From Candidatus Obscuribacterales bacterium (GTDB lineage Bacteria; Cyanobacteriota; Vampirovibrionia; Obscuribacterales; Obscuribacteraceae): a stretch of 64,000 nt of DNA. Shown here in pieces: positions 1,123 to 62,506 of this stretch. Below the pieces are notes generated by a model. That model searched no databases and was not told where the DNA came from. It worked only from the letters and a program-made list of their open reading frames with translations. The translations under genes and the position numbers were made by a program. Every line of letters starts with the position of its first letter. The stretch's first letter is position 1. The stretch covers positions 288,001-352,000 of the forward strand of contig CBDDIJ010000002.1 in assembly GCA_965228855.1 (NCBI GenBank). Direction: 5' to 3'.

Positions 1123-1371
1123 CTACTATATTTTCTCGTACCTCTCGAGCGCTCAAAAGGCACGGATAGCAACACGTTCGAGGATTCAAACACACACAGC
1201 GGCTCTCACTGTCTATGACAGAATGACGAATTTCCGAAAAACCGTCTACGAGCCGTAGACAAACCCAGCCACCTGATCGAACACCAGCGCGTCAGGAAGT
1301 CCGTAAACCGCAAGCTGGCAAGCCTTCCGCCCGCTAGGACATCCCTCCAGAGAAACTAAATCCTAAAGTAG
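1123..1371. repeat. Octamer/52-bp palindrome module (copy 1)
   Basis: CTACTATA 1123-1130; palindrome 1210-1261 (gap 79); degenerate TAAAGTAG 1364-1371 (gap 102). Confidence 0.85.
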
Positions 1372-1775
1372 CAAGTTTGTTAGCGCCAGGTACGCTAGCC
1401 CGGAGCGCTTGAAATCTCTATCACCAGCAGCAATGAAACTCCACTCATAGTGGGATCAGGGCGTCTCTAAAAGCAGGCAGCAAGCGGTTTTTCGCATAAG
1501 AAGAATTAGATGAATTTCTGGTTATAAGCTAGAAAGGTCTGTTTACACTACGCGGGAAAGTTTCGAATCAGAGCGCGCGATTTAATAACCTCAACTCGTT
1601 CCCCCTTATCCCCGAGCTTCAGGTACGTCCCCCACCAAGCCCGGTTCCTCAAAAACAGCTGCAAGTCTTTTCCAGAGAGCGCGAGCTTTCCGGTTGGACA
1701 CGCGTCTATCCAGAGCAAGTGGAGACGCACTGCCGCTGTTTGGTTCACCACAACTCAGTCTGAGGAGATTCACGA

Positions 1776-2207
1776 ATGAAATCCGATTTCTCACGACCCG
1801 AGGGCGTCGAAGAAGACGATAGCGACTTCACATCGATGCTCGAGTACATCCAGCAGGGCGACGAGCAGATGGCGAATCGCGAATTCAGCGATGCCGAAAG
1901 CTCCTACAACGAGGCTCTCTCTGCGGCGTTCGGCTTCTACGGTGCCACCAGTGCGACCGTCCTGCCGCTCGTCCTCAAGCTCGCCGATGCCCAGCTGGCG
2001 GACTGCCAGGACGAAGACCACTTCTCCGACCTGACTCGCACCCTGCAACGCGCACTCGCCGTTGCATCGCTCAAGCACGGTCCGGAGAGCAAGGAGCTCA
2101 TCCCGATCATCGAGAAGCTGATCGCGGTTTACGACCTGCAGGGTGCGCATATGCTCAGCGGCGAACTGCTTCAGCGCCTGCAGGTGCTCAACGAAGTCCA
2201 AGGCTAG
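1776..2207 (+). CDS. Small TPR-like helical protein, paralogue 1
   Basis: GAGGAG RBS; TPR-like pattern; C-terminal YDLQGAHML motif shared with two neighbours. Confidence 0.75.
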   Translation: MKSDFSRPEGVEEDDSDFTSMLEYIQQGDEQMANREFSDAESSYNEALSAAFGFYGATSATVLPLVLKLADAQLADCQDEDHFSDLTRTLQRALAVASLKHGPESKELIPIIEKLIAVYDLQGAHMLSGELLQRLQVLNEVQG

Positions 2208-2429
2208 ACGCGCACACCACTCGTGGTGCACCCGAGAGTTCGAGCAAGCACGACACGTCAGGCGCTCCCAGAGCGCTCACGACACGCCACCATCTGCGGT
2301 GCCCTTGCGTTGGCATCACCGCCGGCGCATGCGTCAATTCTGATCCTTCCGCTGTCGCATTCCAAGCAGCGGTCACTCCCATGCACAAGCTGATGCTGTG
2401 CAGATAACAACGTAGAAAGGAGAAATACA

Positions 2430-2843
2430 GTGGCTTCAAAGTATTCCGCCGCCACCGTCGCCGAGACAGTCGCCAGTGGCGACAAGATGTTCGAAGACGG
2501 TCAGTTCTACCAGGCAGCCGCCAAGTACCAGGAAGCGTTCGTCATCCAGATCCAGCTCAACAACGGTAAGGTCGGAGCGTCCGACAAGCCGCTGATGGAG
2601 AAGATCTTCGACGCCAATATGGCCGGGTCCTTCACCTACCCGCAGCTCATGGCGAGCTGCCTGAAGATGGCGCGCACCATCCTCTTCCTCGCCGAGCGCG
2701 AACACGGCATCGACTCGCCGGAGCTCATCCAGCCGCTCGAACGCCTGGTCACGCTCTACGACCTCGACGGCGCGCATATGCTCGCCATCGAAGTGAAGCA
2801 GCGCATCGACGACATTCGCGCGCAGCAACAATCCGCAGTCTGA
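2430..2843 (+). CDS. Small TPR-like helical protein, paralogue 2
   Basis: AAGGAG RBS before GTG; ELIQPLERLVTLYDLDGAHMLA motif. Confidence 0.75.
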   Translation: MASKYSAATVAETVASGDKMFEDGQFYQAAAKYQEAFVIQIQLNNGKVGASDKPLMEKIFDANMAGSFTYPQLMASCLKMARTILFLAEREHGIDSPELIQPLERLVTLYDLDGAHMLAIEVKQRIDDIRAQQQSAV

Positions 2844-2893
2844 GCGGTTTCCGCTTCAATCCCGTTTCACCATAACTCAGATAGGAAACCAGT

Positions 2894-3310
2894 ATGACCA
2901 CACAATCGATCAACGATAAGGCGCAGGCCTCCATCGCCAGCGGTGATGAATCGTTCGCGGCCGGCAAGTTCGACAACGCCAAGTCGGCTTACGAGCAGGC
3001 TTACCAGACCCTGTACGGCGCCTATGGCTACAACAACCCGATTCTCGTTCCCGTCCTCCGCAAGCTCGTCGCGGTTCACTACTCGAAGAACGCGCAGGGC
3101 TCCTCCAGCGCGATGAAGGAGATGGGCAAGTACCTGAAGATCGAGCTCGCCATCCTGCAGCATGCGCACGGTGTGCGCGCCGCGGAGCTCATCCCGACGC
3201 TCGAGCAGCTCGTCATCTTCTACGACTTCGACGGCGCGCACATGCTCGCGGTCGAGGTGCTGCAGCGCATCGACGACATCAAGGCCAACCTCGAAGCAGG
3301 GCAGGACTGA
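2894..3310 (+). CDS. Small TPR-like helical protein, paralogue 3
   Basis: AGGA RBS; ELIPTLEQLVIFYDFDGAHMLA motif. Confidence 0.75.
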   Translation: MTTQSINDKAQASIASGDESFAAGKFDNAKSAYEQAYQTLYGAYGYNNPILVPVLRKLVAVHYSKNAQGSSSAMKEMGKYLKIELAILQHAHGVRAAELIPTLEQLVIFYDFDGAHMLAVEVLQRIDDIKANLEAGQD

Positions 3311-6516: not shown

Positions 6517-6798
6517 CTACTATAGAAGACAGTCCATGCGAAGTCCACAGAGCTTTGAATAGACAGCATTTAGAGGAGCTCCCCTGCAAAACCGGTAAAG
6601 TTTGTCTACGCTTGTATGACGCAATTGCCAAATTCCGTCGCTCTCAGATAGCCAAACCCACCGTTTTCAATTCCTCGCAAATATTGAATCCACCAAAAAC
6701 CGCTGCCTATAACGATCCGAACAAAACACCGATACCATCGCATCTAGTAGTATCGCTGTCGACCCGAACAAAAACGCAGATACCATCGCATCTAGTAG
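6517..6798. repeat. Two-sided octamer/palindrome module between convergent genes
   Basis: CTACTATA 6517-6524; palindrome 6603-6654; TCTAGTAG 6743-6750 and a duplicated copy at 6791-6798 (48-bp period). Confidence 0.9.
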
Positions 6799-12800: not shown

Positions 12801-12950
12801 CTACTATATTCCAGCGTACTCCGCGACACCCCCAGATCCTTCTACAGCACGGCTCTCCGAGACTTACGCTTATGAAACCAACACCAGAAATTGCGATTTG
12901 GCTATCACTCGTTGCCGGATTGACAGAAATCCGGCAACGACTCATAGACA
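12801..12950. repeat. Octamer/palindrome module
   Basis: CTACTATA 12801-12808; palindrome 12899-12950 (gap 90). Confidence 0.85.
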
Positions 12951-15564: not shown

Positions 15565-15733
15565 CTACTATATTCCGGCGTATTGAAAACCCTCCTACTA
15601 TATTCCAGCGTATTCAAAAATCACGCAGAATCCCGACTCCAGCTGCATTTAACCAGCGGACCTCTAAACGTTGACCCGATTTGTCTACGCTACGATGCCG
15701 GAATTTCGAAAATCCGTCTACGCACCATAGACA
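15565..15733. repeat. Octamer/palindrome module with 30-bp duplicated end
   Basis: CTACTATA 15565 and 15595 in a 30-bp tandem duplication; palindrome 15682-15733 (gap 79). Confidence 0.9.
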
Positions 15734-17267: not shown

Positions 17268-17857
17268 CTACTATGTCATCTAATGATTCCCTGGACCGTC
17301 CCAGCCCAGGCCTGTTAGGTTTCCAGGATCAGCGCTAATTCAGCCCTCCATTTTGTCTATCGTAGAATGCCGGATTTCGCGAAAAGCGGCATTCCAGGAG
17401 CGACAAATCGCCATTCAAGGCATCCACTGACATCAACAGCCAAGGTCAAACAAGTACGCCTGTATGGCTTTGGGGGCTCCTCAAAGTACTTCCTTCTATA
17501 GTAAATAGGGGACTGATTCAGCCCTCCATTTTGTCTATCGTAGAATGCCGGATTTCGCGAAAAGCGGCATTCCAGCAGCGACAAATCGCCTTTCAAGGCA
17601 TCCACTGACATCAACGACAAAGGTCAAATAAGTGCGCCTGTAAGGCATTTCGGACTTCTCCAAAATACTGCCTTTTATAGTAGACAAGGACATTCAGCAC
17701 TCCATTTTGTCTATCGTAGAATGCCGGATTTCGCGAAAAGCGGCATTCCAGGAGCGACAAATCGCCATTCGAGCATCCACTGACATCAACAGCCAAGGTC
17801 AAACAAGTACGCCTGTAAGGCATTTCGGATTTGACGAGATACTCTCTTCTATAGTAG
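17268..17857. repeat. Three tandem ~177-bp copies of the palindrome+octamer module
   Basis: CTACTATG 17268; palindromes 17354-17405, 17532-17583, 17708-17759; TATAGTA[AG] at 17497, 17676, 17850. Confidence 0.95.
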
Positions 17858-17914: not shown

Positions 17915-18499
17915 TCAGCGGCGCTTGCCGGACTGCTCCTTCGCCTTCATGAACTTGTACATCCGTTCCCAGTTCGCGAGGAAGAGCTTCGCTCGCGACT
18001 CTGATTTGATGAAATCCATCTCGTTGGCCTGTTTGCTTGCGGAGTTGGAGAGGTTCCAACTACCGCTGTAGGTCCACAGACCATCGATAACGGTGTACTT
18101 GTGGTGCATGATCTGTCCGTATGATTCGGACTTGCCGATCACCACCTCGATGCCCGCCGCTCGCAGTTTTTCCACCTGCTCCTTAGCGTCGGGTCCACCG
18201 CTCTGCGACTGGTCCAACAACACTCGGACAGTGACGCCGCGAGTTTCCTTCAGCCATATCAACTTGGCGGTGATGTCGTCATGGGTCAGCGAGTACGCTG
18301 CCATGTTGACCGACTTCTGAGCCTTGTCGAGAAACTTCAGGTAGGCGTCGATGCCGTTGTCGTAGGGCGTAAACAGCGTCTCGATATAGTCCTGCGGGTC
18401 GACACCATCGCGCGGCATCTGATACCCGTAGTACGTGCCAGCACCAAAGGTGGTGGCAAGCAAGGCGAGGCTTAGTAAGATGTTTCTCAGCATCTTCAT
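17915..18499 (-). CDS. Phospholipase D family (Nuc-like) single-HKD protein with N-terminal anchor
   Basis: MHHKYTVIDG...SGSWNLS motif; hairpin terminator 17872-17899. Confidence 0.88.
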   Translation of the reverse strand: MKMLRNILLSLALLATTFGAGTYYGYQMPRDGVDPQDYIETLFTPYDNGIDAYLKFLDKAQKSVNMAAYSLTHDDITAKLIWLKETRGVTVRVLLDQSQSGGPDAKEQVEKLRAAGIEVVIGKSESYGQIMHHKYTVIDGLWTYSGSWNLSNSASKQANEMDFIKSESRAKLFLANWERMYKFMKAKEQSGKRR

Positions 18500-29914: not shown

Positions 29915-29977
29915 GCCCGAAACTGCGAACAGGCGACTTCCCACCAGGGATTTCGCCTGTTCCTCCTCCAGATCTGT

Positions 29978-30544
29978 CTACTATAAGTTTTGGTATTACT
30001 CCATTTCGCCCGAAGCCCACCCCAGCATAGCTTTCAAGGCTTGCATAGCATCGAGCCCTCCTGAATTTTTCCGATTTGTCTACGACTCGTTGACGGATCT
30101 CGCGAATTCCGGCAACGAGGCGTAGACAACGTCCTTCGCTCTGAGCCCGAAGTCATCCGAACAGATGCTCCGATCAAAACGCTGCAAATTTGATTGCAGG
30201 TTTCGAACAAAATGCTGCAAACCAATTTGCAGGTCCTTTCGCTCTGAGCCCGAAGTCATCCGAACAGGTGCTCCGATCAAGACGCTGCAAATTTGATTGC
30301 AGGTTTCGAACAAAATGCTGCAAACCAATTTGCAGGTCCTTCGTTCTGAGCCCGAAGTCCTCCGAACAGGATACGATCAATCGACTAATTCGGCTGTCTA
30401 CGCCAGAGCGACGGAATTCGCGAGATCCGTCAACGAGTCGTAGACAAAGCCGCTATTGGGGAGCCGGAAAGATGCAAACAAGGTCCGTAGAACCGCCGGT
30501 CACGAGGCATTCGGGGGACAGCGACAAACTGTCTTGTATAGTAG
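29978..30544. repeat. Double-palindrome module enclosing ~102-bp tandem repeats
   Basis: CTACTATA 29978; palindromes 30077-30128 and 30395-30446; TATAGTAG 30537; internal repeat units start 30131, 30233, 30336 (partial). Confidence 0.92.
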
Positions 30545-32988: not shown

Positions 32989-33126
32989 CTACTATATTTT
33001 TTCGTATAACGCATTTCGGCAAACGCCTTCAGGTCTTTCATTTTCAAGGATGCGGACTTCGTATTCTGATCGTTTGTCTACGACAGAATGCCGGAATTTC
33101 AAATATTCGGCAACGCACCGTAGACA
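32989..33126. repeat. Octamer/palindrome module
   Basis: Terminator 32938-32971, CTACTATA 32989-32996, palindrome 33075-33126 (gap 78). Confidence 0.88.
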
Positions 33127-33499: not shown

Positions 33500-33678
33500 T
33501 GTCTACGCCTGGATGACGCTTTAAGCGAATTTCGTCTACGCACCGTAGCCAAAATGCAATTTTGAGAAACCACTTCAATGGCAGACCAGCCCAAAAGTCC
33601 CTCCCTGTTTACAATTGCCCTATAAAGCTGATACGCCCGCATATAGTAGTAAAGCTTTGGAGTAGTAAAGCTTTGGAG
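33500..33678. repeat. Palindrome/octamer module with 17-bp duplicated end
   Basis: Palindrome 33500-33551; TATAGTAG 33642-33649 (gap 90); AGTAGTAAAGCTTTGG(A)G repeated twice. Confidence 0.88.
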
Positions 33679-34394: not shown

Positions 34395-34786
34395 GACACG
34401 CTCCTTTTGGTTTGGTGTGGGCACTTTCGTCAGAACCTGCTTTCACGACTCTTCGAGCGAAGAGAAGCGAATGCTGAGATAGCCAGATAGATATGAGCTA
34501 CTTGGTTTTTCTGGTCCTTGAGAGAAGTGTGGAATTGAATATAAGAATCACCATAGAATCATGAGCTTTCAACAATCAATAGTTTTAATAAACCGCCTGG
34601 AGCCGCTCAAGCTCAGAAAAATCGGTATCCGAACCAAGCAAAGGGCTATATTTTGGGGCGTTTTCAAAGATCATTCAAGCTCGTGAAACCAAAAGCGCTC
34701 ATGGGAATTCCACGCACATTAAACCACTCTTAGATATTCGCGCAGCTCTGCGACCAGGTCGGTCCGGTCGATTTCCAGATCCGCCC

Positions 34787-34911
34787 CGTCAATCCTAGAG
34801 CGACGGTTTCAACCAATTCCGTCGCGCTCTCATTGACAGACCGATTCTAAATCCAGCCCTGTCAATTCTAAAGCGACGATTTCAGCAAATTCCGTCGCCC
34901 TCTCATTGACA
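34787..34911. repeat. Two 52-bp palindromes of the TGTCAA...TTGACA variant
   Basis: 34787-34838 and 34860-34911; same length and inner CGACG/CCGTCG boxes as the main family. Confidence 0.8.
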
Positions 34912-34953
34912 GCCGACTTGAGACCTATTTGTTTGACAGACCGAGCTTTTACC

Positions 34954-36057: not shown

Positions 36058-36134
36058 TACCTCCAGCGGGAGTCGAACCCGCCTTGGCTGACTCTAAAAT
36101 AGTCAGGCTATCCTAACCGCTGGAAGATGGAGGT
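36058..36134 (-). tRNA. Atypical tRNA/tRNA-like RNA: Glu-type body, anticodon arm about 4 nt too long (apparent loop ATTTTAG)
   Basis: ACCTCCA/TGGAGGT acceptor stem, D-loop AGCGGTTA, T-arm GCGGG TTCGACT CCCGC; CTGACT/AGTCAG stem; no encoded CCA; TATGCT just upstream. Confidence 0.75.
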
Positions 36135-36228
36135 GTCTCTAGCATAGCCGATTGACGGGAAACAGATCGAGCGCAACTGTTCCTGCCCAAAATTGTTCCA
36201 GCTCGAACAGTTTTTGTTCGAAACAGCT

Positions 36229-39200
36229 CTAGCGCGACGCCACTGTTCTTGCGCGATAATCGTTGACCAGCTGCTCAAATTGCTGGCGATTGAATAGCGT
36301 TTGGAACCCGGGATGCTTTTCGGTACCGAGCGATTTCCATTGAGCCATCGCCTCATCTATCGATTTATTGCCTGCGACCACATCGTGAAACGCGTTGACC
36401 AGGCCGGTTCTGTCCTCTCCATGGTAGCAATGGAATAAAACATTTTTGCCTTCGCGCTGCGCTTGACCAACGACACGCTCGAATTCAGCGAGGTTATCCA
36501 GAAGCTGATTGTAATTAGGCGTGCCGCGCATAGGCCACTCCGTGGGAATGCCGAGGTTGCGCACGTCAACCTGTTTTCCAGCAAGGTCGGCAGCCCATTT
36601 AGCCTGGTCGGCAACGCTCTGCAGTTCATCTCGTCCGCCCGGTCCGCCCCGCAAATCAATCACGACATCGGCGTTGGTTTGCTCGATCATTCGAGCGAAT
36701 TCTTCGGGAGATTTCGTCGCACCAGCTCTGTATAACCCTTCCGAAACCTCTGTGACGGGCTGAGGTCTGCGTCCTGGAACTCTAGGCGTCCTGATTCCTT
36801 GTTCTTTCAAAACGCGATTCGTGAAGTCGTTGACCAGCGAGCGATTGTTCGTCGGATGGCTTCTGAACGGATGTAGCATTGCGATATCGACGTTCCGTTC
36901 AGGATCCTTGGTGACATAACCGGGATTACCAACGAGCGCATTGAGTTCGTCAGTCGTGAATCCCATCTGCTGAAGCGCTGGACTATCGAAGATTTGCGGC
37001 AAAACGCCATCGTGTGAATAAATGAATTTCGCATCGAAGTCAAAAACCGATTGCAACTTTTGCTCAGGCAGATAGCCGCCGAGGTGCGCAACTATGACGG
37101 GAGCACCAGATTCCTTGATCGCCTCGGATAAGGGACGCGGAGTCGTTCCGACGCCCTCCGCCAGCGGCTTCATCAAAAGTTTCTCGGGCTGTCTGCCGGT
37201 GAACGAATAGTCATCCAGGTAGACAACTACTTTGTCCTTAAATTTTGATGGATCCGCCTGGAATTCGGCAGCGGACACGAAGTTCTGCGAGCGCAAATCA
37301 GCGGTTCGTCCGAACAAGTGGTGGATAAGGTTGCTTGATCCATTTTCCTCCATGCGTGTGAGTACAACAACATCGTCCATGGTCTTGCCAGGCGGCAGTG
37401 CGTCCTGAATTCGCCGGTTCAGATTTTGCATTTCCTGCAACATCGTTTCGTACGTATTCACTTTCATTGTGTCGCGCAGAATGGTCGCGGCAGCTAATTT
37501 CTCGGCGTCGGTTAGCTTCTCGCCAGTCGTACTGCCAGGCTCCGGCGGTTTTCTATAATTGTCGAGGAAGCTGCGAACGTCTTTGTCGCTAACCATCGAG
37601 AAATTGTTCTTGCTTGCATCGTAAATCGGACGGCTGATTGCCTGATCGTAAATGTTTTCAGCTGAACGATTTCGCGTGCGCTGTGTGCGTGCCGGAAGTT
37701 CCGGACGTAGAATTTCCATGTTTGGAAAATCCTTCGCAGCATTATCGAGTGGTGCTCTGAGAACTTGTTGTATTGCTTCTTCGTTAGTAAGGTTTGGATT
37801 CTCTGCTTTAAGTCGTTTCGCCTGCTCAACCATCTCTGCCATTCGGGTTTGCATCGTCTCGGTGCTGCCAGTCAGCTTAGCCACACCTAGCTCCCACGTG
37901 TTCAGTCCGGAATTGAAACCGTTTAAATCAGATGCGTAAACCTTTGGAAGCTGGCGCAGGAAGTCTGATTGCGCGCCACTCAAGGAAGCAAGATCATCAA
38001 GCACGAGCACCGGATTTGATGGCGAGACTCCTTCGCGAATAGTCTGTGCATTGAGAACCTTGATTTCGACTTCCATGCTTGTATTCGTGCGAAGAAGGTA
38101 GGCTAGAGCCGCGCCGGAAGAATTTTCCTCCGATGCAACCACCGTAATTTTGCGAACTCCCTGCTCTTGCAACTTGCCGATCTGCTGTTGCAGTTTATCC
38201 AGTTGACCATCAAGAGCTTTGCGATGCAGGTTGGGAATGGACTGTTCCAGCAGTTCTAGAGCCAGTCCTCTATCTTGTGGTGGCACTTTGTCGAGCAATT
38301 CCAGGAATTGATCGCGACCAATTGGCGGGCGATTTTGAATTTCAGCAAGCTGTTCACTGACCTCGCGGATGCGCGCCGGATCAACAGGTTGGTCCTTGGC
38401 TCTGACGGGAGCGTCCGTAACCGGACGATTACGATCCGTGACATTGTCACCCTCGACTCGTGGCTCCGTCTCAGTCGGCTTCACCTCTTCCTCGACGCGA
38501 GCGGGCTGACGATGCGGCTCTACTTGACCGTCCGGAGTGGTTGGACGTTCGAGAGGCGTCGCCGGTCGCTCTGCCGGTGGAGTGATACCATCGCGCGATG
38601 GTACGTCTGTCGTTTGTGGTGCAACGTCTGTCGTGCCCGGGGGAACCTCTGTCGTTTGAGGGGGAACGTCTGCCGTCTGCGCCGGTCCGTCTGTCGTGCG
38701 CGCGGGAACTTCTGTCGTGCGACCTGGTACATCCGGAGTGTGTCCGGGCACGTCGGGCGTCACGTGGGCAACCGGCGCATCGACGCCTTGAAGAGCTTGA
38801 TCGGCGATGTTTTGTAGAGGCGAGCGTTCTCGAGAGGCCACCGTTCTCAACGCATTCCAGCCTTTTCCAGCCACCACCATACCCGGTGCCAGGAGGATCG
38901 GACCGAGGCTGCCGCCGAGTGCACCGAATGCGGTGCTAGTTGTCGCCTGCCGCAAGAACGAAGCAACGTCCCGAGCGTCTGCGCCAGCCTGAATTGTTCC
39001 CGACAAACCACTTCCCGCCATACCCGCCAGAGTGTTTTCCGGAGTGCTCATGACTATCTGCTTGAGCAATGTGCGGCTTTGCTCTTCAACAGACTCGGCC
39101 AAACTGTTTTTCAACAACGCGGCAACAGCCTTCTCATCGCCGTCTTTGGCAATCTGTTTTGCAAGCGACAGGATCGCATCGTCCGAGATTTTGCCACCAT

Positions 39201-42200
39201 TCGCCAAGCCTTGCTTCAACAGCGCTTCCGTACCCTCTTTCAGAGTTGTTTCCGCGCCTTCTCTAAGCAGATTCTTACCAGCACCTGCCAAAACTTTCTC
39301 TGCGGCAGCCTTTCCAACGCCGGCTCCAAGGAATGCGGTGAAGCCTTCAGCGAAGCCGGTTCCCGCGTCGAGAAACGCTTTACTACCCCAATCGTAGTCA
39401 CCGCCCATGATGGCAGACTTGGCGCCGACTTTGAACAACGCGGCACCGGCGCCGGTGTAGGCAAGCAGTGACAAACTAACGCCACCAGTGAAGAATGCGC
39501 CACCGACCGACACAGCCGCGATGGTCGTATCGACTACAGCGTTCGCCAGTCCTTCTTTAGAGTCTGCGTGCATGTCGACCAGCTTATAAACGTTTGCAAC
39601 ATGGTCGCGAATCTTAGCCGGGTCCTCAACCATCGTCCTGGCAAGCTGGTTGATCTCATTGTCCAACTGATAACCGGTTCCATCCCAGGCGGCATCAACA
39701 AAGGAGCTGCCTATACCGGAACGGCTTATGGAAGCGTCGTTTTGCGCGTAGAGGAACTCGCCGCGCGCGTCACGAACAGTCGATTGCCGCTGCACCTGGC
39801 GCAAGTCTTTGCCGGAAAGCTCGGAGACCAAATCCGCTGAGAGATCGGTACCATACTTACGCGCATACTCGTCCTGAACTCTCTGCACGCGGCTGCGAAC
39901 GATCTCGTCTATTTCCGCTTCTGACTTACCTTCCTGACGCAGCGCAGTGCGATCCGTTAGTTGAGCAAATGTGTCTTTGATTTCCTGCTCGCTGGTGCCC
40001 ATGCCAATTTGGTACGACCGAAGTTTATCCTCAGGTCGCATCTCGCCCTGCTGCATCGATGCAAGCGCTACCTTGCGCTCGTCCTGACTGAGGAAACCGA
40101 GAACACGATCTTGGAACGCCTGGTCTTGGAGAATACGCTGTCGCTCATCACCGGTGGCGTTCTGAATATCGCGATAAGAGCCTTGCTCGTCGTCGTCAAA
40201 AACTCCTCGGTTGAGATCCATCTGTCTTTCGATCGGAATGCTCCCCGTCTCGATCAACGGTTTAGCATAGCGCTCGTAGTCGTACGATCCCATTGCTCGC
40301 CTTGCAGCATCCTGAAAATCACGCGCGAACTTTCTGCCTTCTTCGGTGTCGGGCGGATGAATAATTCGCTCTCGAAGCGTCGGATCATTTTTGAACGCTT
40401 CCTGGATATCCCTTATCACTTGCGCTTCGTCTGAATCAAAGTGCGACGCATGCAAGTTGAGTTTGTCCATGATGGACATTTGCGGTTTTTCACCACGCTT
40501 AACCTGATCGAGTAAACCGAATGCGACTTTCTGTTCGCTCGAATCCAGCGAATCACGCAATTCCTGATTTAACTTCAGGTAGAAGTCCCGTGCTTCTTTG
40601 TTGGTAGTCGACTCGTTGCTGCCTTCTCGATACAAAGCCTGCTCACGATCGCTCATTCTCTCGACGGCCTTGTACATTTGCGCTTCGTCGTTGTTGTACC
40701 AGCGGCGATTGTCCGCGATCGTCTCGAGGATCGGTCGTCTGTTCTGCTGCGCTTCTTCGAACGTAGGCGCGTCTTTCATCGCGTTGATTCGCGTCATTGC
40801 GCGCTGAAGCTCAGACTCGGATAAATAAGTTTTCAAAACCTGTTCGACACGTTGCACTTGCATCGGATCGTTGCGAAGCTGCTGCCAGTCTTCCTTCGAC
40901 ATATCTTCGATGGAACCGATTACTTCATGCATACTCGAGTCGTAGACTGTTCCACGATGCGCGGACAAGCGTGAAACCAGCCCGCCACCCTTGTTAGCGA
41001 TCATGTCCTCCCACTTCGCCAACTCATTAACTTGCGAGTCACCGGAGTACCATTGCCCCGCTGCTCGTTCCAGCGCACCATGGGTCTTGGTGTAGTAGTC
41101 CATCGCCTGTTTCCGTTCATCCGCATCAACTTGCGGCGCCGGTTGCTCGTTTCGAGCTAACGCTCTACCTGTGGTGTACAACTGCCTCTCGCGATCGCTC
41201 ATATTGGCGAGCGAGTGCTCGATTGCTTCTTCGTTGTCGCCCAGCCATGAACGGTTGTCGTCTACCTGCGTGGACACCGATAACTTTCCGTGCTCCGCAT
41301 AGTCGCGCACGTGCTGCAAGTTCGTATCCGTGACATTGCCGCTAAGTCCAAACGTGAGCGCGTGATACCAGTGACCTTCAAATGCGTTGCGCATCGCATC
41401 CTGACCTGCCGGAGAGGCAAAATAGTCGCGCACTTCTTTGGGTGCGCGGCGCATCGCTTCCTGAAACATTGTCGGATCGCCTGACGTAACAGCGCGGTCG
41501 GCCAGGGTTCTCGTATCTTGCGGGGTGCGTTTGTCGTGACCCTTCAGATAGACATCGGCCGCTGCTTTCGTATCCGCAGACAAATGCGGGTTGTTCATGA
41601 CCGCGTCACGAAGCGACATGCCATAGCGTCTGCGATATTCAGCATCGGTCTGCGCGATTTCCGTCGAGCTCATCGTTTCAAGCGTGTTGCGCACGACCTT
41701 TTCCAGCTCGGAATTAGATCGTCCTGTCCACTCGCCGCGCTCCGTCAACGCTACCCGAATCGTGCCCGCGTTGTCGGCGCCATCAGGACGATGGAGAAGT
41801 GCGTTGGCTTTGTCCAGGTCGGAGCCTTCCATCTCGTCTTTGAACTCGGCTTCCAGAGTATGACCGTACTTCTTCCCGTATTTCTCGTTCCAGATTTCCT
41901 TGATCATCTGGCGCTCTGCAAACGTTTTGTTCTCGAGCGTGGAGTAGATCGTCTGCTCGTCTGTGCCGGCACCTGTGCCACCATTCATCGCATACTCGAT
42001 AGTGTCAGCAGCAGCTTCCATCGAGCGATGATTTACATCTTGCCTGGAACCATCAGGTTTTCGCCACTGCCGGTTCCCCTCAGCGTCTTGCTGGAAGTAG
42101 GTACCGTCTGATTGCACGGATAGACGGCCCTGCCAGTTAGTTTTACCGTTCGTCCAGTTGGTACCATCGGTGGTGGTCCAGGTTTCGTTTCCTTCCGTGA

Positions 42201-44349
42201 ATTTGTTGATCTGACCATTAGCGTCTCTTTCGTAAGTCCGCTTCACGCCTTTAGCGTCAACAGTTTCAACAAGCTGGCCGGCCTTGTTCTCCAGTCGCGT
42301 GGCGCCTGACGGTTCGCGATAAAGCGTATTACCGTCAAGTTGTTTTGCGACCGCCGTTTCACCCTGAATCGTATTGTAAGTGCCATCCGGACTGACCCAA
42401 ACAGCTCCCTTCCATTTTTCGCCGGAGCTGGCAGTCCAGTTGTCTCCATCGCTGCTAGTCCAGACTTTGCCGTCCACAGCTTTGATTTTCGATAACTTTC
42501 CGTTTTCACCATACTCGTATTCGCGAGTCTGTCCGTCCACTGAAGTAGTCGAGACCACTCGCCCCTGAGCATCCATGGCAACTTTACTGTTGTCCGGATT
42601 TGTTACGGTGAAGCGCTTCGGCACTCCGCGCTCGTCGTATTCATAACTGGTTCTGGAACCGTCGGCGTTGTCGCCGCTAGCGAGTCGCCCGTTCTTGTCA
42701 AAACTGAGATTTCGTCCATCGGTGAGTGCAAGAGTACGATCGCCGGATGCAGTGTCGCGCATCTCGGCTGAACCGTCTGGGCGCACGTTGACGCTCATAG
42801 GTTTTGTTTCGCCACTGGTCTCATTACGCCAGTTGACACCGTCCGTGGTGCTTAGTTTTAGACCTTTGCTGTCGGAGAAACCGTTTACCTTGCCCTGCGC
42901 ATCATATTCGAACGCTCTCCAGTTGCCGCGAGCGTCTTCCACACGGGTGATTCGACCGTCGACAGCCGTGATGTTGGAGCCATCGCCTTTGAAAACCTTG
43001 ACCTTACCGTCTTCACCAACCTCGCGATAAATGCCGTCCGGCGTTACTTCACGCCGCCCCTTAAAAGTTTCGTTCTTCTCATTCGTCCAGCCGCCATTCT
43101 CATTCGCCCGCCAGGTGCCGGTCTTATCGGTCATTTTGCTCATGCGACCTTGAGCATCATACTCGAAGCTGCGCACATCACCTTTTGCATCCTTGACGGA
43201 GGTGATCTGACCAGCGTCGTTTCTCGTGACCACGGACCCGTTGTCGCTCTGGCGCTCTTCTCTGGTCTGACCGCCTTCTGTGATGCGCTGCCAGCCGTCG
43301 GTTTTCCTCGCAATCTCCTTGCCGGCAGCCCACTTCTCGTGAATCGTGCCATCCTGATCTACGGATATCTCGACGTTTATCGTCGTATTCTGATCCGACC
43401 TTTTCCAGGACTTCCCGTCCGAGGTTGTCCACTGAGAGCCGTCCGCGGCAGTCATGGCCTTCAGTTTGCCGTCCTCGCCGTATTCGAAACGACGTTCTGC
43501 ACCATTTTGGTCTTTAACGGCAGTGACGTGCCCGTCCTTATCGCGCGAAACGGTGGAGCCGTCCATCTTGAAATTGGTCGTCTCACCGCGGGCATTCTTA
43601 ACGGTTTGAGTCCCATCCTCTGCGACTGAAACCTCTCCCGATCTCGTCTGGTTCGAGCCCTGCTTATGCCAATTGGTGCCGTCAGGACTCTGCCAGACGG
43701 CGCCGTCGGGCTCGACAATACTTGCGAGTTTTCCGGTGGCATCATAGCCATAGCCACGGCGAGCTCCAGCACCATCTATGGTGGCAGTCACCCGGTGCTT
43801 ATCGTCGAACAAAACCTGAGAACCGTCGCTGTTCGTTTTCTGGCGCTCGCGTCCCTGTTCATCCAAGCTGCTGACGCTTCGATCTGCGTTGCGTCGCAAT
43901 TCACCGCCATTTTCCAGTTTGAACGAGTACGTGCCGTCCGGGCGAATTTCTACGTCTTTGACGGGAATCTGCTCGCCGCCTGGTTTGAGTGTGAAACTTT
44001 TACCGTCAGCGCTGCGTGTCCATTCTGTGCCATCGGCTTCTGCAATGCGAGAAACTTGACTCTGTGAATCTTTTTCGACTGTAACCGTGTATCCGTTTTC
44101 TCGAGTAAACGTCTCCGGCGCTGTCGCTGGTTTTGAACTTGAGTCGAGCTGGCTCAGAAGGTCACGATCCGAAGCTAAACCAGTCGGTATCTCAGCGGCA
44201 GGCGCGGTTGTTCGAGATGTCGAATCCATCGACGAAAGCGCTTCATCAACCATCGCCTTGCCGGCGGTAGTTTCAGGCGCGGCGTCAGGCTTGACGGCCT
44301 TTTCGGGCACGGTCGCGCTCGCATCGGTGGAGGGATTCGGGGGAGTCAC
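36229..44349 (-). CDS. Giant multidomain protein: YD repeats, annexin-like repeats, hydrophobic segment, PRTase-like regions, C-terminal Cys-dependent tyrosine/dual-specificity phosphatase
   Basis: RxF[EG]YDxxG repeats; GAGTDEQTIY..YG..LE annexin signature; YLDDYSFTG; HCYHGEDRTG CX5R motif. Confidence 0.8.
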   Translation of the reverse strand: MTPPNPSTDASATVPEKAVKPDAAPETTAGKAMVDEALSSMDSTSRTTAPAAEIPTGLASDRDLLSQLDSSSKPATAPETFTRENGYTVTVEKDSQSQVSRIAEADGTEWTRSADGKSFTLKPGGEQIPVKDVEIRPDGTYSFKLENGGELRRNADRSVSSLDEQGRERQKTNSDGSQVLFDDKHRVTATIDGAGARRGYGYDATGKLASIVEPDGAVWQSPDGTNWHKQGSNQTRSGEVSVAEDGTQTVKNARGETTNFKMDGSTVSRDKDGHVTAVKDQNGAERRFEYGEDGKLKAMTAADGSQWTTSDGKSWKRSDQNTTINVEISVDQDGTIHEKWAAGKEIARKTDGWQRITEGGQTREERQSDNGSVVTRNDAGQITSVKDAKGDVRSFEYDAQGRMSKMTDKTGTWRANENGGWTNEKNETFKGRREVTPDGIYREVGEDGKVKVFKGDGSNITAVDGRITRVEDARGNWRAFEYDAQGKVNGFSDSKGLKLSTTDGVNWRNETSGETKPMSVNVRPDGSAEMRDTASGDRTLALTDGRNLSFDKNGRLASGDNADGSRTSYEYDERGVPKRFTVTNPDNSKVAMDAQGRVVSTTSVDGQTREYEYGENGKLSKIKAVDGKVWTSSDGDNWTASSGEKWKGAVWVSPDGTYNTIQGETAVAKQLDGNTLYREPSGATRLENKAGQLVETVDAKGVKRTYERDANGQINKFTEGNETWTTTDGTNWTNGKTNWQGRLSVQSDGTYFQQDAEGNRQWRKPDGSRQDVNHRSMEAAADTIEYAMNGGTGAGTDEQTIYSTLENKTFAERQMIKEIWNEKYGKKYGHTLEAEFKDEMEGSDLDKANALLHRPDGADNAGTIRVALTERGEWTGRSNSELEKVVRNTLETMSSTEIAQTDAEYRRRYGMSLRDAVMNNPHLSADTKAAADVYLKGHDKRTPQDTRTLADRAVTSGDPTMFQEAMRRAPKEVRDYFASPAGQDAMRNAFEGHWYHALTFGLSGNVTDTNLQHVRDYAEHGKLSVSTQVDDNRSWLGDNEEAIEHSLANMSDRERQLYTTGRALARNEQPAPQVDADERKQAMDYYTKTHGALERAAGQWYSGDSQVNELAKWEDMIANKGGGLVSRLSAHRGTVYDSSMHEVIGSIEDMSKEDWQQLRNDPMQVQRVEQVLKTYLSESELQRAMTRINAMKDAPTFEEAQQNRRPILETIADNRRWYNNDEAQMYKAVERMSDREQALYREGSNESTTNKEARDFYLKLNQELRDSLDSSEQKVAFGLLDQVKRGEKPQMSIMDKLNLHASHFDSDEAQVIRDIQEAFKNDPTLRERIIHPPDTEEGRKFARDFQDAARRAMGSYDYERYAKPLIETGSIPIERQMDLNRGVFDDDEQGSYRDIQNATGDERQRILQDQAFQDRVLGFLSQDERKVALASMQQGEMRPEDKLRSYQIGMGTSEQEIKDTFAQLTDRTALRQEGKSEAEIDEIVRSRVQRVQDEYARKYGTDLSADLVSELSGKDLRQVQRQSTVRDARGEFLYAQNDASISRSGIGSSFVDAAWDGTGYQLDNEINQLARTMVEDPAKIRDHVANVYKLVDMHADSKEGLANAVVDTTIAAVSVGGAFFTGGVSLSLLAYTGAGAALFKVGAKSAIMGGDYDWGSKAFLDAGTGFAEGFTAFLGAGVGKAAAEKVLAGAGKNLLREGAETTLKEGTEALLKQGLANGGKISDDAILSLAKQIAKDGDEKAVAALLKNSLAESVEEQSRTLLKQIVMSTPENTLAGMAGSGLSGTIQAGADARDVASFLRQATTSTAFGALGGSLGPILLAPGMVVAGKGWNALRTVASRERSPLQNIADQALQGVDAPVAHVTPDVPGHTPDVPGRTTEVPARTTDGPAQTADVPPQTTEVPPGTTDVAPQTTDVPSRDGITPPAERPATPLERPTTPDGQVEPHRQPARVEEEVKPTETEPRVEGDNVTDRNRPVTDAPVRAKDQPVDPARIREVSEQLAEIQNRPPIGRDQFLELLDKVPPQDRGLALELLEQSIPNLHRKALDGQLDKLQQQIGKLQEQGVRKITVVASEENSSGAALAYLLRTNTSMEVEIKVLNAQTIREGVSPSNPVLVLDDLASLSGAQSDFLRQLPKVYASDLNGFNSGLNTWELGVAKLTGSTETMQTRMAEMVEQAKRLKAENPNLTNEEAIQQVLRAPLDNAAKDFPNMEILRPELPARTQRTRNRSAENIYDQAISRPIYDASKNNFSMVSDKDVRSFLDNYRKPPEPGSTTGEKLTDAEKLAAATILRDTMKVNTYETMLQEMQNLNRRIQDALPPGKTMDDVVVLTRMEENGSSNLIHHLFGRTADLRSQNFVSAAEFQADPSKFKDKVVVYLDDYSFTGRQPEKLLMKPLAEGVGTTPRPLSEAIKESGAPVIVAHLGGYLPEQKLQSVFDFDAKFIYSHDGVLPQIFDSPALQQMGFTTDELNALVGNPGYVTKDPERNVDIAMLHPFRSHPTNNRSLVNDFTNRVLKEQGIRTPRVPGRRPQPVTEVSEGLYRAGATKSPEEFARMIEQTNADVVIDLRGGPGGRDELQSVADQAKWAADLAGKQVDVRNLGIPTEWPMRGTPNYNQLLDNLAEFERVVGQAQREGKNVLFHCYHGEDRTGLVNAFHDVVAGNKSIDEAMAQWKSLGTEKHPGFQTLFNRQQFEQLVNDYRARTVASR

Positions 44350-44533: not shown

Positions 44534-44850
44534 CTACTATATGCGGGCGTATCAGTATAATCGCGACGACGCAGTAAAGGACGGTTTTTTGGGCAAACGA
44601 CTTGCCGACCACTTATGGCTTTGTCTACGACTCGTTGACGCTTTCCCGGAAATCCGTCGCTCTCTCGTAGACGATGGGGAGAGCTGACTCAAAACAGCTT
44701 TTGTCTATGGTGGAATGACGGATTCAGCGAAATCCGGCATCCCGCGATAGACAAACAACGGAATTTGAAGAGATGCTTCTTTCAAGATACCTGCAATGTC
44801 CCACCCCCACTACGCTCCGGGTGAAAACTTTTCACTCCGGGATATAGTAG
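44534..44850. repeat. Two-sided module with two adjacent palindromes
   Basis: CTACTATA 44534; palindromes 44622-44673 and 44702-44753; TATAGTAG 44843; terminator 44865-44890. Confidence 0.92.
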
Positions 44851-48804: not shown

Positions 48805-48856
48805 TGTCAAAGAGCCAGCGATGGAACTCGCAAAATCCGTCGCTCTGGGTTTGACA
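48805..48856. repeat. 52-bp palindrome, TGTCAA...TTGACA variant
   Basis: TGTCAAAGAGCCAGCGATGG...CCGTCGCTCTGGGTTTGACA in a divergent intergenic region. Confidence 0.75.
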
Positions 48857-49985: not shown

Positions 49986-50056
49986 GCAACTCACTTGATT
50001 CAAATGAGGGAACCGTTACCCTGACCGGGTTTCGGTTCTCTCATCTTCACGACCAT

Positions 50057-50300
50057 CTACTATATCATTTCGTTTCTAGTCAGCAGAAAACGACGACAGG
50101 AGCGGGTTCGAGAGCAACCTGCATTGTTCAGTCCGCCAGCCAACCCCGTTTGGCTACGAGAGAGCGCCGGAATTTTCGAATTCCGTCATAGCCAGATAGC
50201 CAAACTCGCTTTTTCTTGCCCGCCTTGAGGGACCGCTTCCTCCAAAAGCAGCACCAGGGCTTCTTTTTCCGCCTTAGCAATCTACCCTTCCATCTAGTAG
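50057..50300. repeat. Two-sided octamer/palindrome module
   Basis: Terminator 50004-50044; CTACTATA 50057; palindrome 50151-50202; TCTAGTAG 50293. Confidence 0.92.
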
Positions 50301-56977: not shown

Positions 56978-59466
<2,489 letters not shown>

Positions 59467-59935: not shown

Positions 59936-60339
59936 CTACTTTAAGCCGACGTATTCACACAAATCCTCCCAAGGCTCTCCGCGCATTTGTTATCGAAGAC
60001 TATCTACTATAAGCCGACGTATTCGCACAAATCCGCCTAAGGCTCTCCACGCAGCTGTTTCGAGAGCAAAGCACATCGCTCAACCCCCGCCTACTATAAG
60101 CCGACGTATCCACACAATCCTCCGAAGGCTCTCCACTCACCAGTTTCGAGAGCATCGCGCATCGTTCATTCCGCCATCCACCTTCGTTTGGCAACGAGAG
60201 AGCGCCGGAATTTTCGAATTCCGTCATAGCCAGATAGCCAAACTCGTTTTTTGATTACTGCTTTTGAAGGGGCGTTTCCTCCAAAAGCATCATTACGTCT
60301 CAGTCTCCCGCCTTAGACGTCTACCAATCCATCTAGTAG
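59936..60339. repeat. Two-sided module with triplicated left end
   Basis: CTACT[AT]TAAGCCGACGTAT starts at 59936, 60004, 60091; palindrome 60189-60240; TCTAGTAG 60332. Confidence 0.92.
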
Positions 60340-60419
60340 TCACATTTTGAAAAAAGTGTCGCTCCGGACTTGCTTCTGCGCAAGTTTTCGGAGCGACACG
60401 TCAAAGCCTTATGTCACCG

Positions 60420-61031
60420 TCAGAGGCTGGCGGCGAGCTCCTGCAAGCGAGCGACGACGGCTTCGCGATGGGCAGCGTGGGTGACGCGACCAACCATCTC
60501 ACGAGTGCCGTTGCCCAGATTCTTCGGATTCTCCCAGCGGACGCCGGTGACAGATTCGATCTTCTTGCGAAGACCACTCTGCTTGTCCTTGAACCTGGAA
60601 GCAGTGACACCACTGATGGTGACAGTCACGATGGTGGCGCCGTCGGTGGTGTTGACCGAGACCTTCATGGAATCATGATCGGCGACGGTCGTGTTCAGCG
60701 CCTGCGGCGATGGCGTTGTCGCGAGCGAGGTTTTCGAGCCGGCGCTCAAGTTCGGAGAAACGACCTTCTCGACTTCCAGTCCGAGCGCGCCATGGGATAC
60801 TTCATCGGGAACGGCGAGACAGTCCTGGGTGAAGTCGAGCGGGCGTTTCGACACGAACAGTGCGATGAGCGCGCAGACCGCACCGACCGCAATTTGCATC
60901 GGATCGCTCAGCGTCACTTCGAACTGCTGCGCGATGGGCTGAGCCACAAACCAAGAAATTGCACCGGTGGCAACAACCGCGAACGCGCGCGTCGACCAGG
61001 TGAGAATTCGAGCTTGACGACAAGTTCTCAT
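60420..61031 (-). CDS. Hypothetical membrane protein
   Basis: GGAG RBS; two N-terminal hydrophobic helices. Confidence 0.65.
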   Translation of the reverse strand: MRTCRQARILTWSTRAFAVVATGAISWFVAQPIAQQFEVTLSDPMQIAVGAVCALIALFVSKRPLDFTQDCLAVPDEVSHGALGLEVEKVVSPNLSAGSKTSLATTPSPQALNTTVADHDSMKVSVNTTDGATIVTVTISGVTASRFKDKQSGLRKKIESVTGVRWENPKNLGNGTREMVGRVTHAAHREAVVARLQELAASL

Positions 61032-61515
61032 TTAGTACTCCATCTATCTGGGTTTAGTTTTTGGGATGAAAGCTCCTCAGACCCATCGGGCTCAAGGAAG
61101 ACAGATTGAAAACGAAGTCAGGGATTTGTTCGAGTAGATACCTGAAAGGGTGAATTGGAGGAAGACAAGCGAATCTAGCCAAACAGGCTCACTCCCCTCA
61201 ACTCGCCTAAATAGAAATTTGCTTACTTGATAAATAAAAGCTCGTAATTTTATATATAGAGCAGAAGCACACACCAGATGACAAGCGCTAGCGACACCTC
61301 TTTTTGGGGATATTTACGGGGCAGCCATACCAGGCTGATCAGGTTGAAATGGCTCTAGCCGGAAGATTGTGTAGCCATCCTGAAGACGCCAACGAATGGC
61401 AGATGAAAGCAATCGACTAGCGAGGGTCGCGCGACTTGCCGCTTCTGTTGCCGCACCGGCGGAAATTGACCTCTTAGCGGTTTCACTCAGCGCAGGTCGT
61501 TTGCGCATTTGCGTT

Positions 61516-62145
61516 TCAAGACGACGAACCGAGCTGGTTCAAGTCGACCCCGTAGCCTAATAATTCGTGATGAAGCGCCTCCGGAGAGGTAAACAAAATC
61601 GCCTGCATTCCAGCTTCTCTGGCTGCAATTATGTTCTCTTCCAAATCGTCCACGAACAAACAATGTTTTGCAGCTAAACCGCTTCTAGCCATCACCTCAC
61701 CATAAATCGGCGCATCCGGCTTAGCATGTCCAACCTCGTATGACAGAATGAGTTCTTCGAAGTGCCGCGCCACATCATAGGTTTGCTGGATCCAGCCGTA
61801 ATGGTTTTCATTCGTGTTTGAGAGCAGGTAGAGTCTAAAAGCAGTTTTCAATTTGGTCAAAATCTTTACCATCTCAAGGTTTTCCACAAATGTCGCATTC
61901 CACAAAGTCGTGAATTCCGTCTCGTCAATCTCGGTTTTCAGCGCCCTGTTTAATTCGGCAAGAAACATCTCCGTGCCGATCTTTCCGGTTTCATAACCCA
62001 ACGAGCCGAGATGCCTCAACACCGGTTTGAAGTCATCGCCCTCAAAGTTCGCGCGCTTGCAGAAGCCCGCACAGACTGCCGACCAATCGAAATCGATTAG
62101 TACGTGACCCATATCGAAGGCAAAAAGTTTGATTTCGCTTGCCAT
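61516..62145 (-). CDS. HAD-family phosphatase (YihX-like)
   Basis: FDMGHVL, LSNT, KP, FVDD motifs. Confidence 0.9.
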   Translation of the reverse strand: MASEIKLFAFDMGHVLIDFDWSAVCAGFCKRANFEGDDFKPVLRHLGSLGYETGKIGTEMFLAELNRALKTEIDETEFTTLWNATFVENLEMVKILTKLKTAFRLYLLSNTNENHYGWIQQTYDVARHFEELILSYEVGHAKPDAPIYGEVMARSGLAAKHCLFVDDLEENIIAAREAGMQAILFTSPEALHHELLGYGVDLNQLGSSS

Positions 62146-62253
62146 TTATTGAAATTCTGCCTCCATCCCACGTCCGTTCGTCCATACAACACGAACCGTT
62201 CAAACCATTGCCCGGTCAGGGCTTTTATAGCGTCTATTTTACTCGCCCAGACT

Positions 62254-62506
62254 TGTCTATCGTACGATGACAGATTTCCGAATATCCGGCATCGTGGGAT
62301 AGACAAGATGGGTAGTGCATCACGGATGTAAGGGCAAAACAGCCGTGGACACTACATTCTAGCGCTTACCGCTTATGCTGTCTTATAGTAGATAAGGAAT
62401 CCGGCATCGGGGGATAGACAAGATGGGTAGTGCATCACGGATGTACGGGCGAAACAGCCGTCGGCACTGGATTCTAGCATTTAAAACATATGCTGTCTTA
62501 TAGTAG
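62254..62506. repeat. Palindrome/octamer module with ~115-bp duplicated right half
   Basis: Palindrome 62254-62305; TATAGTAG 62384; half palindrome to 62420; TATAGTAG 62499; terminator 62524-62569. Confidence 0.9.

Follow-up and report, generated by a model that had tools for sequence, protein, structure and literature searches.

The window analysed here, a 64,000-nucleotide stretch of the genome of a Candidatus Obscuribacterales bacterium, carries dispersed copies of a 52-bp double palindrome (the 52-mer), typically joined by an arm to an outward-facing octamer with TAGTAG. Comparison of the copies indicates that 52-mer, arm and octamer are copied as one unit, with its fixed end at the octamer. 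The 52-mer probably serves as a binding platform, and the unit up to the phased TAGTAG is probably nicked and re-copied by a protein that combines a PLD-family nuclease with an XRE-type helix-turn-helix (HTH) domain. That this PLD-HTH protein binds the dyads of the 52-mer we regard as very likely; its role in driving the copying is less certain. The element is real, non-random and apparently undescribed: the literature searched, with most subscription papers outside its scope, held no report of the repeat, of a TAGTAG terminator site or of a repeat-tied PLD-HTH protein.

All 16 palindromes located in a preliminary description of this DNA, made from the sequence alone, are present at their positions; the count was incomplete, with further 52-mers at 34787, 34860 and 48805. 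The genome-wide scan it proposed, with a position weight matrix (PWM) built from the window 52-mers, finds 210 copies at more than 18 bits in the source genome (G000; 8.2 Mb, 95% complete) and none with shuffled columns. A looser pattern matches 131 times in G000, 106 times in G007, a genome of the same genus, and once in each of three others among 107 genomes of the order. Metagenomes hold the 52-mer in 63 stretches that share about 92% identity with G000, and viral contigs gave no match. The single copy in G006 and two stretches in an Acidobacteria bin may be misbinned, as most of their genes have 91–97% protein identity to G000. The element is extragenic, lies behind genes and is vertically kept; 174 of the 210 copies fall within C2:77-1,121 kb (about 1.1 Mb), in an origin domain (C2:60-1,150 kb) that contains dnaA and the GC-skew switch. 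Each 52-mer consists of two 19-bp dyads in a GTC-N11-GAC frame, 33 bp apart, with an A/T-rich centre, and its halves read CG[TG]C...[CA]CA. The seven-base dyad spacers take 164 forms among 398 halves. They had been described as pairing poorly, which holds in part: at some positions the two sides of the 52-mer pair a little more often than by chance, at others less often, and the DNA fold is -10.2 kcal/mol compared with -8.8 kcal/mol for chimeras. Covariation would have pointed to an RNA hairpin; within the halves no covarying register was found (index sums 19-23).

The copy signature has its sharpest edge at the octamer. Likeness between distant copies spans the 52-mer and the arm and ends there; a distant relative at ≥65% identity exists for 31 of 241 arms (control 0), and one two-armed unit has been copied whole onto another contig. 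Phased octamers are followed by a duplication at 95/241 arms in G000, and at 48/153 arms of lone elements, compared with 0/86 TAGTAG sites of other genomes and 5/89, 1/168 and 3/250 control positions. A repeat of the upstream sequence comes after 187/548 octamers near 52-mers, in most cases separated from the octamer by 6-13 unrelated bases. Of 166 such repeats, 51 start no more than 10 nt from the 52-mer's outer edge, and most of the others inside the unit. Aligned at the octamer, 131 tandem pairs fall in identity from 1.00 to 0.48 at the first base past TATAGTAG and stay at 0.5-0.6 over ten bases. The duplications have no leading- or lagging-strand bias (p=0.67), and an effect of replication direction was accordingly rejected. 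Between G000 and G007 the arm is 0.874 identical and the flanks of the TAGTAG site 0.67 and 0.76-0.81, compared with 0.895 at third codon positions and 0.947 in other intergenic DNA; in these alignments the arm shows fast sequence turnover, strongest on both TAGTAG flanks. Furthermore, 53 of 147 synteny breaks touch an element, and the single replacement seen in contig runs put 114 bases in place of 466 between two elements of another strain. Most units are one-armed, the flanks of the 52-mer are inverted (TT...AA), and no target duplication was seen at units; with no 15-30-bp terminal inverted repeats either, a miniature inverted-repeat transposable element (MITE) of a DDE transposase was rejected.

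Whole helical turns separate the 52-mer from its octamer. Gaps to the octamer in the window are 79, 78, 90, 79, 78, 91, 78, 80, 86 and 90 bp on the left and 102, 88, 91, 92, 90, 90, 90, 89, 90, 91 and 78 bp on the right, in agreement with those listed earlier, the fifth '78' of that list belonging to a half copy (62399-62420) with an octamer at 62499. Over 417 arms, a non-redundant set from G000, G007 and the metagenome population, the distribution is not flat and bears out the suspected spacing of about 11 bp: gaps peak at 67, 78-80, 88-92 and 99-102 bp with a period of 11.4 bp, and their phase coherence is 0.77, compared with 0.16 at the 99th percentile of uniform gaps. An octamer had been assigned to every copy, which is too general: 33/210 copies have none within 70-105 bp, and a TGTCAA subtype mostly lacks it. 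Nor is the gap sequence entirely free; it varies, but, counted from the octamer, A/T tracts recur at -47, -27 and -18, and TAC at -10. Three observations support the proposal that a protein-DNA complex spans palindrome and octamer: the gaps are phased at 11.4 bp, the arm lacks covariation, and the layout is found again in a second genus around a different palindrome. Two-armed units combine 78 and 90 bp in 27 of 62 cases with about 22 expected, so that no pairing rule between arm classes, like 12/23, applies.

The same observations bear on copying through RNA, in which a host reverse transcriptase (RT) would copy the unit in the manner of a SINE and a 52-nt hairpin would protect one end. One end is indeed fixed and the other variably truncated, pairing across the 52-mer is in weak excess, and G000 has four RT genes, one adjoining an element. 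However, the arm has neither fold nor covariation, an 11.4-bp phasing is a property of duplex DNA, no Rfam family matches in the window (a known structured RNA was rejected on this ground), the RTs are not specific to element-bearing genomes, and the association with PLD-HTH genes is left unexplained; we consider this route very improbable. Two of the RTs are lone and retron-like: the one at C3:2,800,508 is found in all eight genomes of the genus, and the one at C2:944,459 is truncated in G007 beside an element end.

The octamer is the right half of a longer site, WAC[GT]-N8-TAGTAG, which occurs without any 52-mer in the relatives G002, G005, G006 and G001, including beside their adk-like genes; on this distribution the octamer is half of an older, family-wide host site. 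The host site is tied to transcription terminators. Of 690 domain genes in G000, 98 have CTACTATA behind their stop and 2 have it ahead of their start, the octamer thus facing gene 3' ends, and a sense promoter for the next gene was rejected. A hairpin on the strand of the converging gene accompanies 101/217 outermost sites, compared with 30 after shuffling, and 74 of these lie 10-19 nt off. CTACTA follows 40/130 predicted terminators inside the domain and 1/357 outside it in G000; the terminator U-tracts are modest, 37/89 having four or more. A sigma54-type enhancer-promoter was rejected, RpoN (PF04552) being absent from 5/5 genomes.

The promoter that had been suggested from the likeness of TATAGT to a -10 box is thus conceivable in the antisense direction only. 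The PLD-HTH protein would then be a transcription regulator like TrmB or a C protein, the 52-mer its operator, and TATAGT the -10 element of an antisense promoter firing back across the terminator; the duplications would arise passively, through host repair at a stable activator-polymerase complex. This explanation shares the dyad-binding step with nicking and re-copying. It gains from the TA before TAGTAG, which gives TATAGT at 65/75 phased sites compared with 8/30 in G002 and 4/37 in other genera and is conserved between G000 and G007 at 0.96; from an enrichment of canonical TANNAT hexamers upstream of ordinary genes; from the HTH, which matches restriction-modification (R-M) control proteins in 14/33 members; from antisense initiation near terminators, as reported in PMC6978322; and from the presence of Ku twice. 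However, the invariant bases are those of the older TAGTAG core and not a -12/-11/-7 pattern alone, there is no -35 element, the TA could come from a founder copy, and no use is evident for 200 antisense promoters within one lineage. The catalytic residues of the protein are invariant, and the dyads often lie 3' of its gene or on both sides of it. Taken together, we judge the regulator explanation unlikely.

TAGTAG sites are also confined in the chromosome. G061, which belongs to another genus and is assembled as a single contig, has 32 of its 35 such sites within 0.65 Mb around dnaA, with similar clustering in G012, G082 and G100; since whole-genome counts in most relatives do not exceed a reversed-pattern control, the clustering is the signal. 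No canonical DnaA box stands beside TAGTAG sites in the profile, and the 50 kb around dnaA (G000 C2:770-820 kb) hold only one match to it. TAGTAG may resemble DnaA-trios, and CTACTA may resemble rolling-circle nick sites. The origin domain (also G061 2.41-3.06 Mb and G002 C94) is family-wide, with higher third-position GC (GC3; 0.68 vs 0.56), common gene content and shuffled gene order. The C2 region of G000 is colinear with G002, and its higher GC3 is ancestral. Because dnaA and the GC-skew switch lie inside it and because of this colinearity, the region is native chromosome, and a plasmid or island origin was rejected; the elements are likewise rejected as the cause of the high GC, G002 having an equal GC3 contrast without 52-mers. 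A segment of 66% GC at C2:1-55,000, not continued in G007, is possibly a misjoin or a foreign insertion.

Such confinement could reflect an architectural function, in which TAGTAG would be a matS/ram-like signal of the origin domain, the double dyad a lineage-specific loop anchor, and the instability an effect at the edges of tightly bound proteins. The clustering in G061, G012, G082 and G100, the GC3 raised in G000 and G002 alike and the common gene content agree with this, and a candidate binder exists: a MerR-HTH protein (G000 C2:82,811-84,061; L319:14789-15634) that resembles RacA (E=0.003), with a coiled coil and a disordered linker, single-copy in 71/107 genomes of the order, its gene near the domain edge in the near-complete genomes G000, G061, G012 and G082. 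However, a nuclease gene beside many unrelated dyads and duplications only where 52-mer and TAGTAG combine are left unexplained, TAGTAG is polar to terminators, and the RacA site is described as a GC-rich palindrome (PMC4914108). As an account of the whole element we regard this as improbable, but it may be the true role of the TAGTAG site alone. Whichever applies, a conserved origin-domain signal behind terminators is exposed across a whole bacterial family.

The 52-mer is not the only double dyad. Its TGTCAA subtype forms fixed arrays with a 73-bp period, and a CTGCAA family (44 copies in 11 arrays in G000) has a 102-bp period, both without a phased TAGTAG. In genus g16, TATGC-N8-GCATA occurs twice at 33-34 bp, with 13, 13 and 1 copies in 3/107 genomes; these dyads are origin-clustered in G061, and TAGTAG lies 38-137 bp from a g16 dyad in 11/28 cases. 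In the examined part of G061, 16/20 TAGTAG sites have no dyad. A third family (g54), searched across the order, has 1-4 copies per genome in four genomes of one genus. Generic double dyads upstream of TAGTAG in eight other genomes yielded one weak match in a tandem repeat and none that was convincing. G002 has dispersed repeats of its own, a 28-bp perfect palindrome (at least 6 copies in 20 kb) and a family of 38-bp tandem repeats (G002 C3 (L204); G002 C94:1-400, 44,567, 91,620), and carries two PLD-HTH genes.

No cognate enzyme is encoded in the window, as had been noted; the candidate partner lies 185 kb outside, at G000 C2:103,074-103,847 (257 aa), and was found by seeking genes bracketed by outward-armed elements. 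Its product has a PLD motif, a CxxC, a putative zinc site and a C-terminal XRE HTH, and is one of five G000 paralogs, all in the origin domain. A G007 paralog (54%) sits between TGTCAA arrays, and the G000 paralog at C2:1,042,618 is flanked by two arrays of the CTGCAA family; the other three (C2:67,368, 917,966 and 1,002,489) have tandem-repeat flanks and no perfect double dyad. The one at C2:1,002,489 occupies the place of a 52-mer in G007 and in the metagenome strain. Homologs at E<=1e-12 occur in 52/107 genomes, some as only the PLD domains of larger proteins, and those above 50% identity occur only in G000 and G007. In genus g16 they are found in those two genomes that have 13 copies of the TATGC double dyad apiece, and the two homolog genes of G061 end 107-133 bp or less ahead of a TATGC dyad. 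This gene-repeat association extends to other genomes: a perfect double dyad of period 32-34 lies within 450 bp of 13/30 homolog loci (the best locus of each of 30 genomes), compared with 6/463 control genes, and a double dyad at any of 17 other periods beside 5/30. The dyads mostly differ in sequence, with at least 11 different ones, and are often downstream of the homolog gene or on both sides of it.

The PLD motifs of the protein are intact. Across 33 sequences H107, K109, D114, G121, S122, N124 and E133 are invariant, as are C59/H99/C156/C159 of the putative zinc site; the HxKxxxxD and GSxN motifs are present, with one HxK motif per chain. The structure model (pLDDT 90.9) has NucT, Zucchini and Nuc as its best folds, TrmBL2 ranking 26 among the fold matches. 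A homodimer model scores 0.55 (best control 0.00), a mark reached by 20/30 solved pairs and 1/23 single chains (contact agreement ≥55%, pLDDT ≥79). Its interface is in the HTH domain, through which the protein is predicted to dimerise, although the score may be due to likeness to solved XRE dimers. A profile search returned 368 sequence clusters at E<=1e-30, and PADLOC partial domain matches only (MkoC, MkoB, HTH, control proteins). Among 36 strain-specific open reading frames (ORFs) and 109 ORFs of the G061 domain no fitting enzyme was seen. The window itself encodes a NucT-like stand-alone PLD nuclease (194 aa; 17,915-18,499), rejected as partner: it has no HTH and is kept in relatives where the 52-mer is absent.

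A mechanism can be outlined in which one HTH dimer would bind each 19-bp dyad. As there is one HxK motif per chain, the PLD halves of two dimers would have to pair, so that only a double dyad would activate the nuclease. Phased A/T tracts would bend the arm, which would loop the nuclease to the TAGTAG site, where a host protein or the terminating RNA polymerase would hold or melt the DNA. Nicking 0-10 nt beyond TAGTAG would produce a 3'-OH and leave the 5' end joined to the enzyme. DNA synthesis would then run through the arm and end by rejoining at the 52-mer's outer edge, or before that edge, giving full and truncated tandem copies, and rare excised copies would land at other terminators. 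This chemistry is plausible because the PLD nuclease BfiI, as described in PMC2853115, forms a 5'-phosphohistidine, frees a 3'-OH and builds one active site from two chains. Among the roles proposed earlier, a platform for cleavage at a fixed offset comes closest, since duplications and inter-copy homology both end at the octamer.

Several observations weigh against nicking and re-copying by this protein. Binding, nicking and copying by this protein are inferred. Element positions are mostly stable between strains (111/120 placed loci; 42/43) and no clean filled/empty site pair was found, and dispersal must therefore be rare or old. Microhomology, with TT before the 52-mer and TT after the octamer, could add to the outer-edge peak. 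At 17/30 homolog loci there is no perfect double dyad, and the paralog at C2:917,966 has lost the HKD motif. Conserved catalytic residues are favoured by the way in which homologs were collected, by similarity, and the PLD fold, by analogy with TrmB regulators, may also serve as a sensor. The TGTCAA and CTGCAA arrays indicate that phasing to TAGTAG is not general to the protein family. Only 11/28 g16 dyads have a TAGTAG within 170 bp; phasing in G061 is looser (gaps 38, 54, 57, 57, 65, 66, 69, 72, 80, 89, 92 and 137), and G061 has both genes and dyads, yet duplications at 0/19 TAGTAG sites. The low copy number of the g54 family also fits plain operators.

Our data do not lend support to a recombination platform of att, res or attC type that captures genes, which had also been proposed and which we find hardly credible. 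The CTA-N7-TAG cores resemble tyrosine-recombinase sites, a few strain-specific genes are bracketed by elements, and gene order is shuffled within the domain. However, strain-specific genes are not enriched near elements (6/29 vs 92/368; 5/18 in G007), the region is colinear native chromosome, and there is no pairing rule between arm classes. Serine resolvases (PF00239) number 0 in G000 and G007 and one each in G061 and G063, in G061 far from the domain; a Tn3-type res site was rejected accordingly. An integron attC or tyrosine att site was rejected too, no dedicated integrase with site-bounded gene cassettes being found. Two highly conserved Xer-like proteins (L218, L219; G000 C2:369,775 and C2:923,144; 45/107 genomes) have an altered catalytic Arg/His and are possibly non-catalytic DNA binders; the pair is genus-wide with no close homolog in G061, and was rejected as partner.

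Within the window, two-armed units lie at 1123..1371 (octamer 1123-1130, 79-bp arm, 52-mer 1210-1261, 102-bp arm, degenerate octamer 1364-1371), with right arm and 52-mer related to a copy at C2:96190; at 6517..6798 (octamer 6517, gap 78, 52-mer 6603-6654, gap 88, octamer 6743-6750), where a short duplication after the second octamer ends in another at 6791-6798; at 50057..50300 (octamer 50057, gap 86, 52-mer 50151-50202, gap 90, octamer 50293), with a right arm related up to the octamer to 60189 and C2:833854; and at 60091..60339 (octamer 60091, gap 90, 52-mer 60189-60240, gap 91, octamer 60332). One-armed units on the minus strand occupy 12801..12950 (octamer 12801, gap 90, 52-mer 12899-12950), 15565..15733 (52-mer 15682-15733, gap 79, octamer 15595, then a 30-bp duplication with a second octamer at 15565), 29978..30128 (octamer 29978, gap 91, 52-mer 30077-30128) and 32989..33126 (octamer 32989, gap 78, 52-mer 33075-33126); those on the plus strand occupy 30395..30544 (52-mer 30395-30446, gap 90, octamer 30537) and 33500..33649 (52-mer 33500-33551, gap 90, octamer 33642).

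Three 52-mers (17354, 17532, 17708) form a tandem array at 17268..17857 with periods of 178 and 176, right arms of 91/92/90 and one left arm of 78. A pair at 44534..44850 (44622, 44702) has outward arms of 80 and 89 bp and octamers at 44534 and 44843. The duplicated plus-strand unit at 62254..62506 (52-mer 62254-62305, gap 78, octamer 62384) shows the typical duplication signature, with a truncated copy (half 52-mer 62399-62420, gap 78, octamer 62499) following the octamer after 7 unrelated nt. TGTCAA-subtype 52-mers without octamer are the overlooked pair at 34787..34911 (73-bp period) and a degenerate copy at 48805..48856. Two copies of the CTGCAA family, CTGCAA-N6-TTGCAG twice at a 33-bp period, lie at 30182..30335 (30182-30232, 30285-30335). 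Plus-strand terminator-like hairpins precede CTACTATA by 15 nt behind an aminotransferase gene (29927..29962) and by 12 nt behind adk (50004..50044).

Between tyrS and adk the window has an insertion relative to G002 and G006 (33,927-35,973 and 36,058-44,349), with two NADAR/GP30.3-like genes, a tRNA-Lys and a 2,706-aa RHS/YD-repeat gene, and at 56,978-59,466 a ClpA/B-type chaperone gene is split over two reading frames (347 + 445 aa). Elsewhere in G000, two IS110-family elements (3 identical and 4 copies, 52% alike) have all seven copies inside 52-mers (C2:774,696, 858,557, 1,120,766, 197,250 and 987,926; C5:861,234 and 1,461,455), one entering the outer box and the other the inner box.

Tentatively, PLD-family nucleases may drive a class of non-autonomous DNA replicators in the Obscuribacterales, in which every PLD-Zn-HTH protein would read its own 33-bp double dyad, be active only when two dimers pair there and, in the present lineage, reach 6-9 helical turns to nick at a host terminator signal and copy the DNA between. 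If so, hundreds of diverged homologs would be a natural library of double-site-gated, distance-cutting nicking and strand-transfer enzymes, and the protein-dyad pairs, with at least 11 dyads beside homologs and 368 clusters, a ready specificity code. For repeat families without an enzyme, such as the CGTC family of repetitive extragenic palindromes (REPs) described in PMC3733652, PLD-HTH proteins would be a new candidate class.

Among known systems, REP/REPIN-RAYT is the closest in habit. As PMC3733652 and bioRxiv 2021.07.10.451892 describe it, hundreds of short extragenic palindromes stand behind genes, persist vertically and form tandem clusters, the non-jumping partner gene is flanked by its own repeats, several families share a genome, and insertion sequences target them. 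The nicking and re-copying proposed here would parallel the action ascribed to RAYT on REPs. The partner here is, however, a PLD nuclease with an XRE HTH and not an HUH transposase, site recognition seems to involve double-stranded DNA (two dyads, 33 bp), a variable arm phased to a separate site of the host is part of what is copied, and the copies crowd the origin domain. By the features compared, the element belongs to neither the REP/RAYT nor the MITE type, which would have spoken against its novelty: it has no tagged stem-loop, MITE features are lacking, and RAYT (Y1 HUH, PF01797) has no match in G000 and G007. GTAG ends the octamer 67-101 bp from the palindrome and not at a stem foot as in GTAG REPs (6-13-bp stem). 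Each half, CGTC...CCA/ACA, equals tag plus tail of CGTC REPs/dRS3, for which the account in PMC3733652 gives no known transposase; in contrast to these, only 12 nt separate tag and tail, without an 8-9-bp stem (4-5-nt loop) or covariation, the tags face inward, and dyads of homologous systems have no CGTC tag.

The protein shares its fold, the HxK-D-GSxN motif and one motif per chain with the PLD nucleases Nuc, NucT, BfiI, Zucchini and Mokosh MkoB/C, and BfiI too joins its PLD domain to a DNA-recognition domain (PMC2853115), but it differs in the C-terminal XRE HTH, the putative zinc site and the dispersed repeats tied to it; no methylase or helicase partner was seen beside the G000 PLD-HTH genes. 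An XRE dimer on paired dyads is a feature of R-M C proteins, and TrmB, as the TrmBL2 match reflects, joins a PLD-like domain to an HTH, in the reverse order; compared with both, the catalytic residues are intact here, and the sites number up to 210 and are copied. The layout recalls the Type I-F CRISPR leader, where according to bioRxiv 2023.05.26.542337 about 150 bp are folded by means of inverted repeats and bending sites, which lets an enzyme act at a fixed point some distance away, but there is no Cas1-type integration of foreign spacers, and the added piece is a copy of the element itself. Like the tens of matS/MatP and ram/RacA sites described in PMC3330122 and PMC4914108, TAGTAG sites are confined to one chromosomal domain, but they are asymmetric and tied to terminators. 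A PLD nuclease as mobiliser of small repeats was not found in the literature searched, with subscription papers outside its scope. Small bacterial repeats are known to be mobilised by HUH, DDE, serine, tyrosine or DEDD enzymes; if the PLD-HTH nuclease does the copying, the system is categorically new, and if it only binds, a variant of operator-repeat systems.

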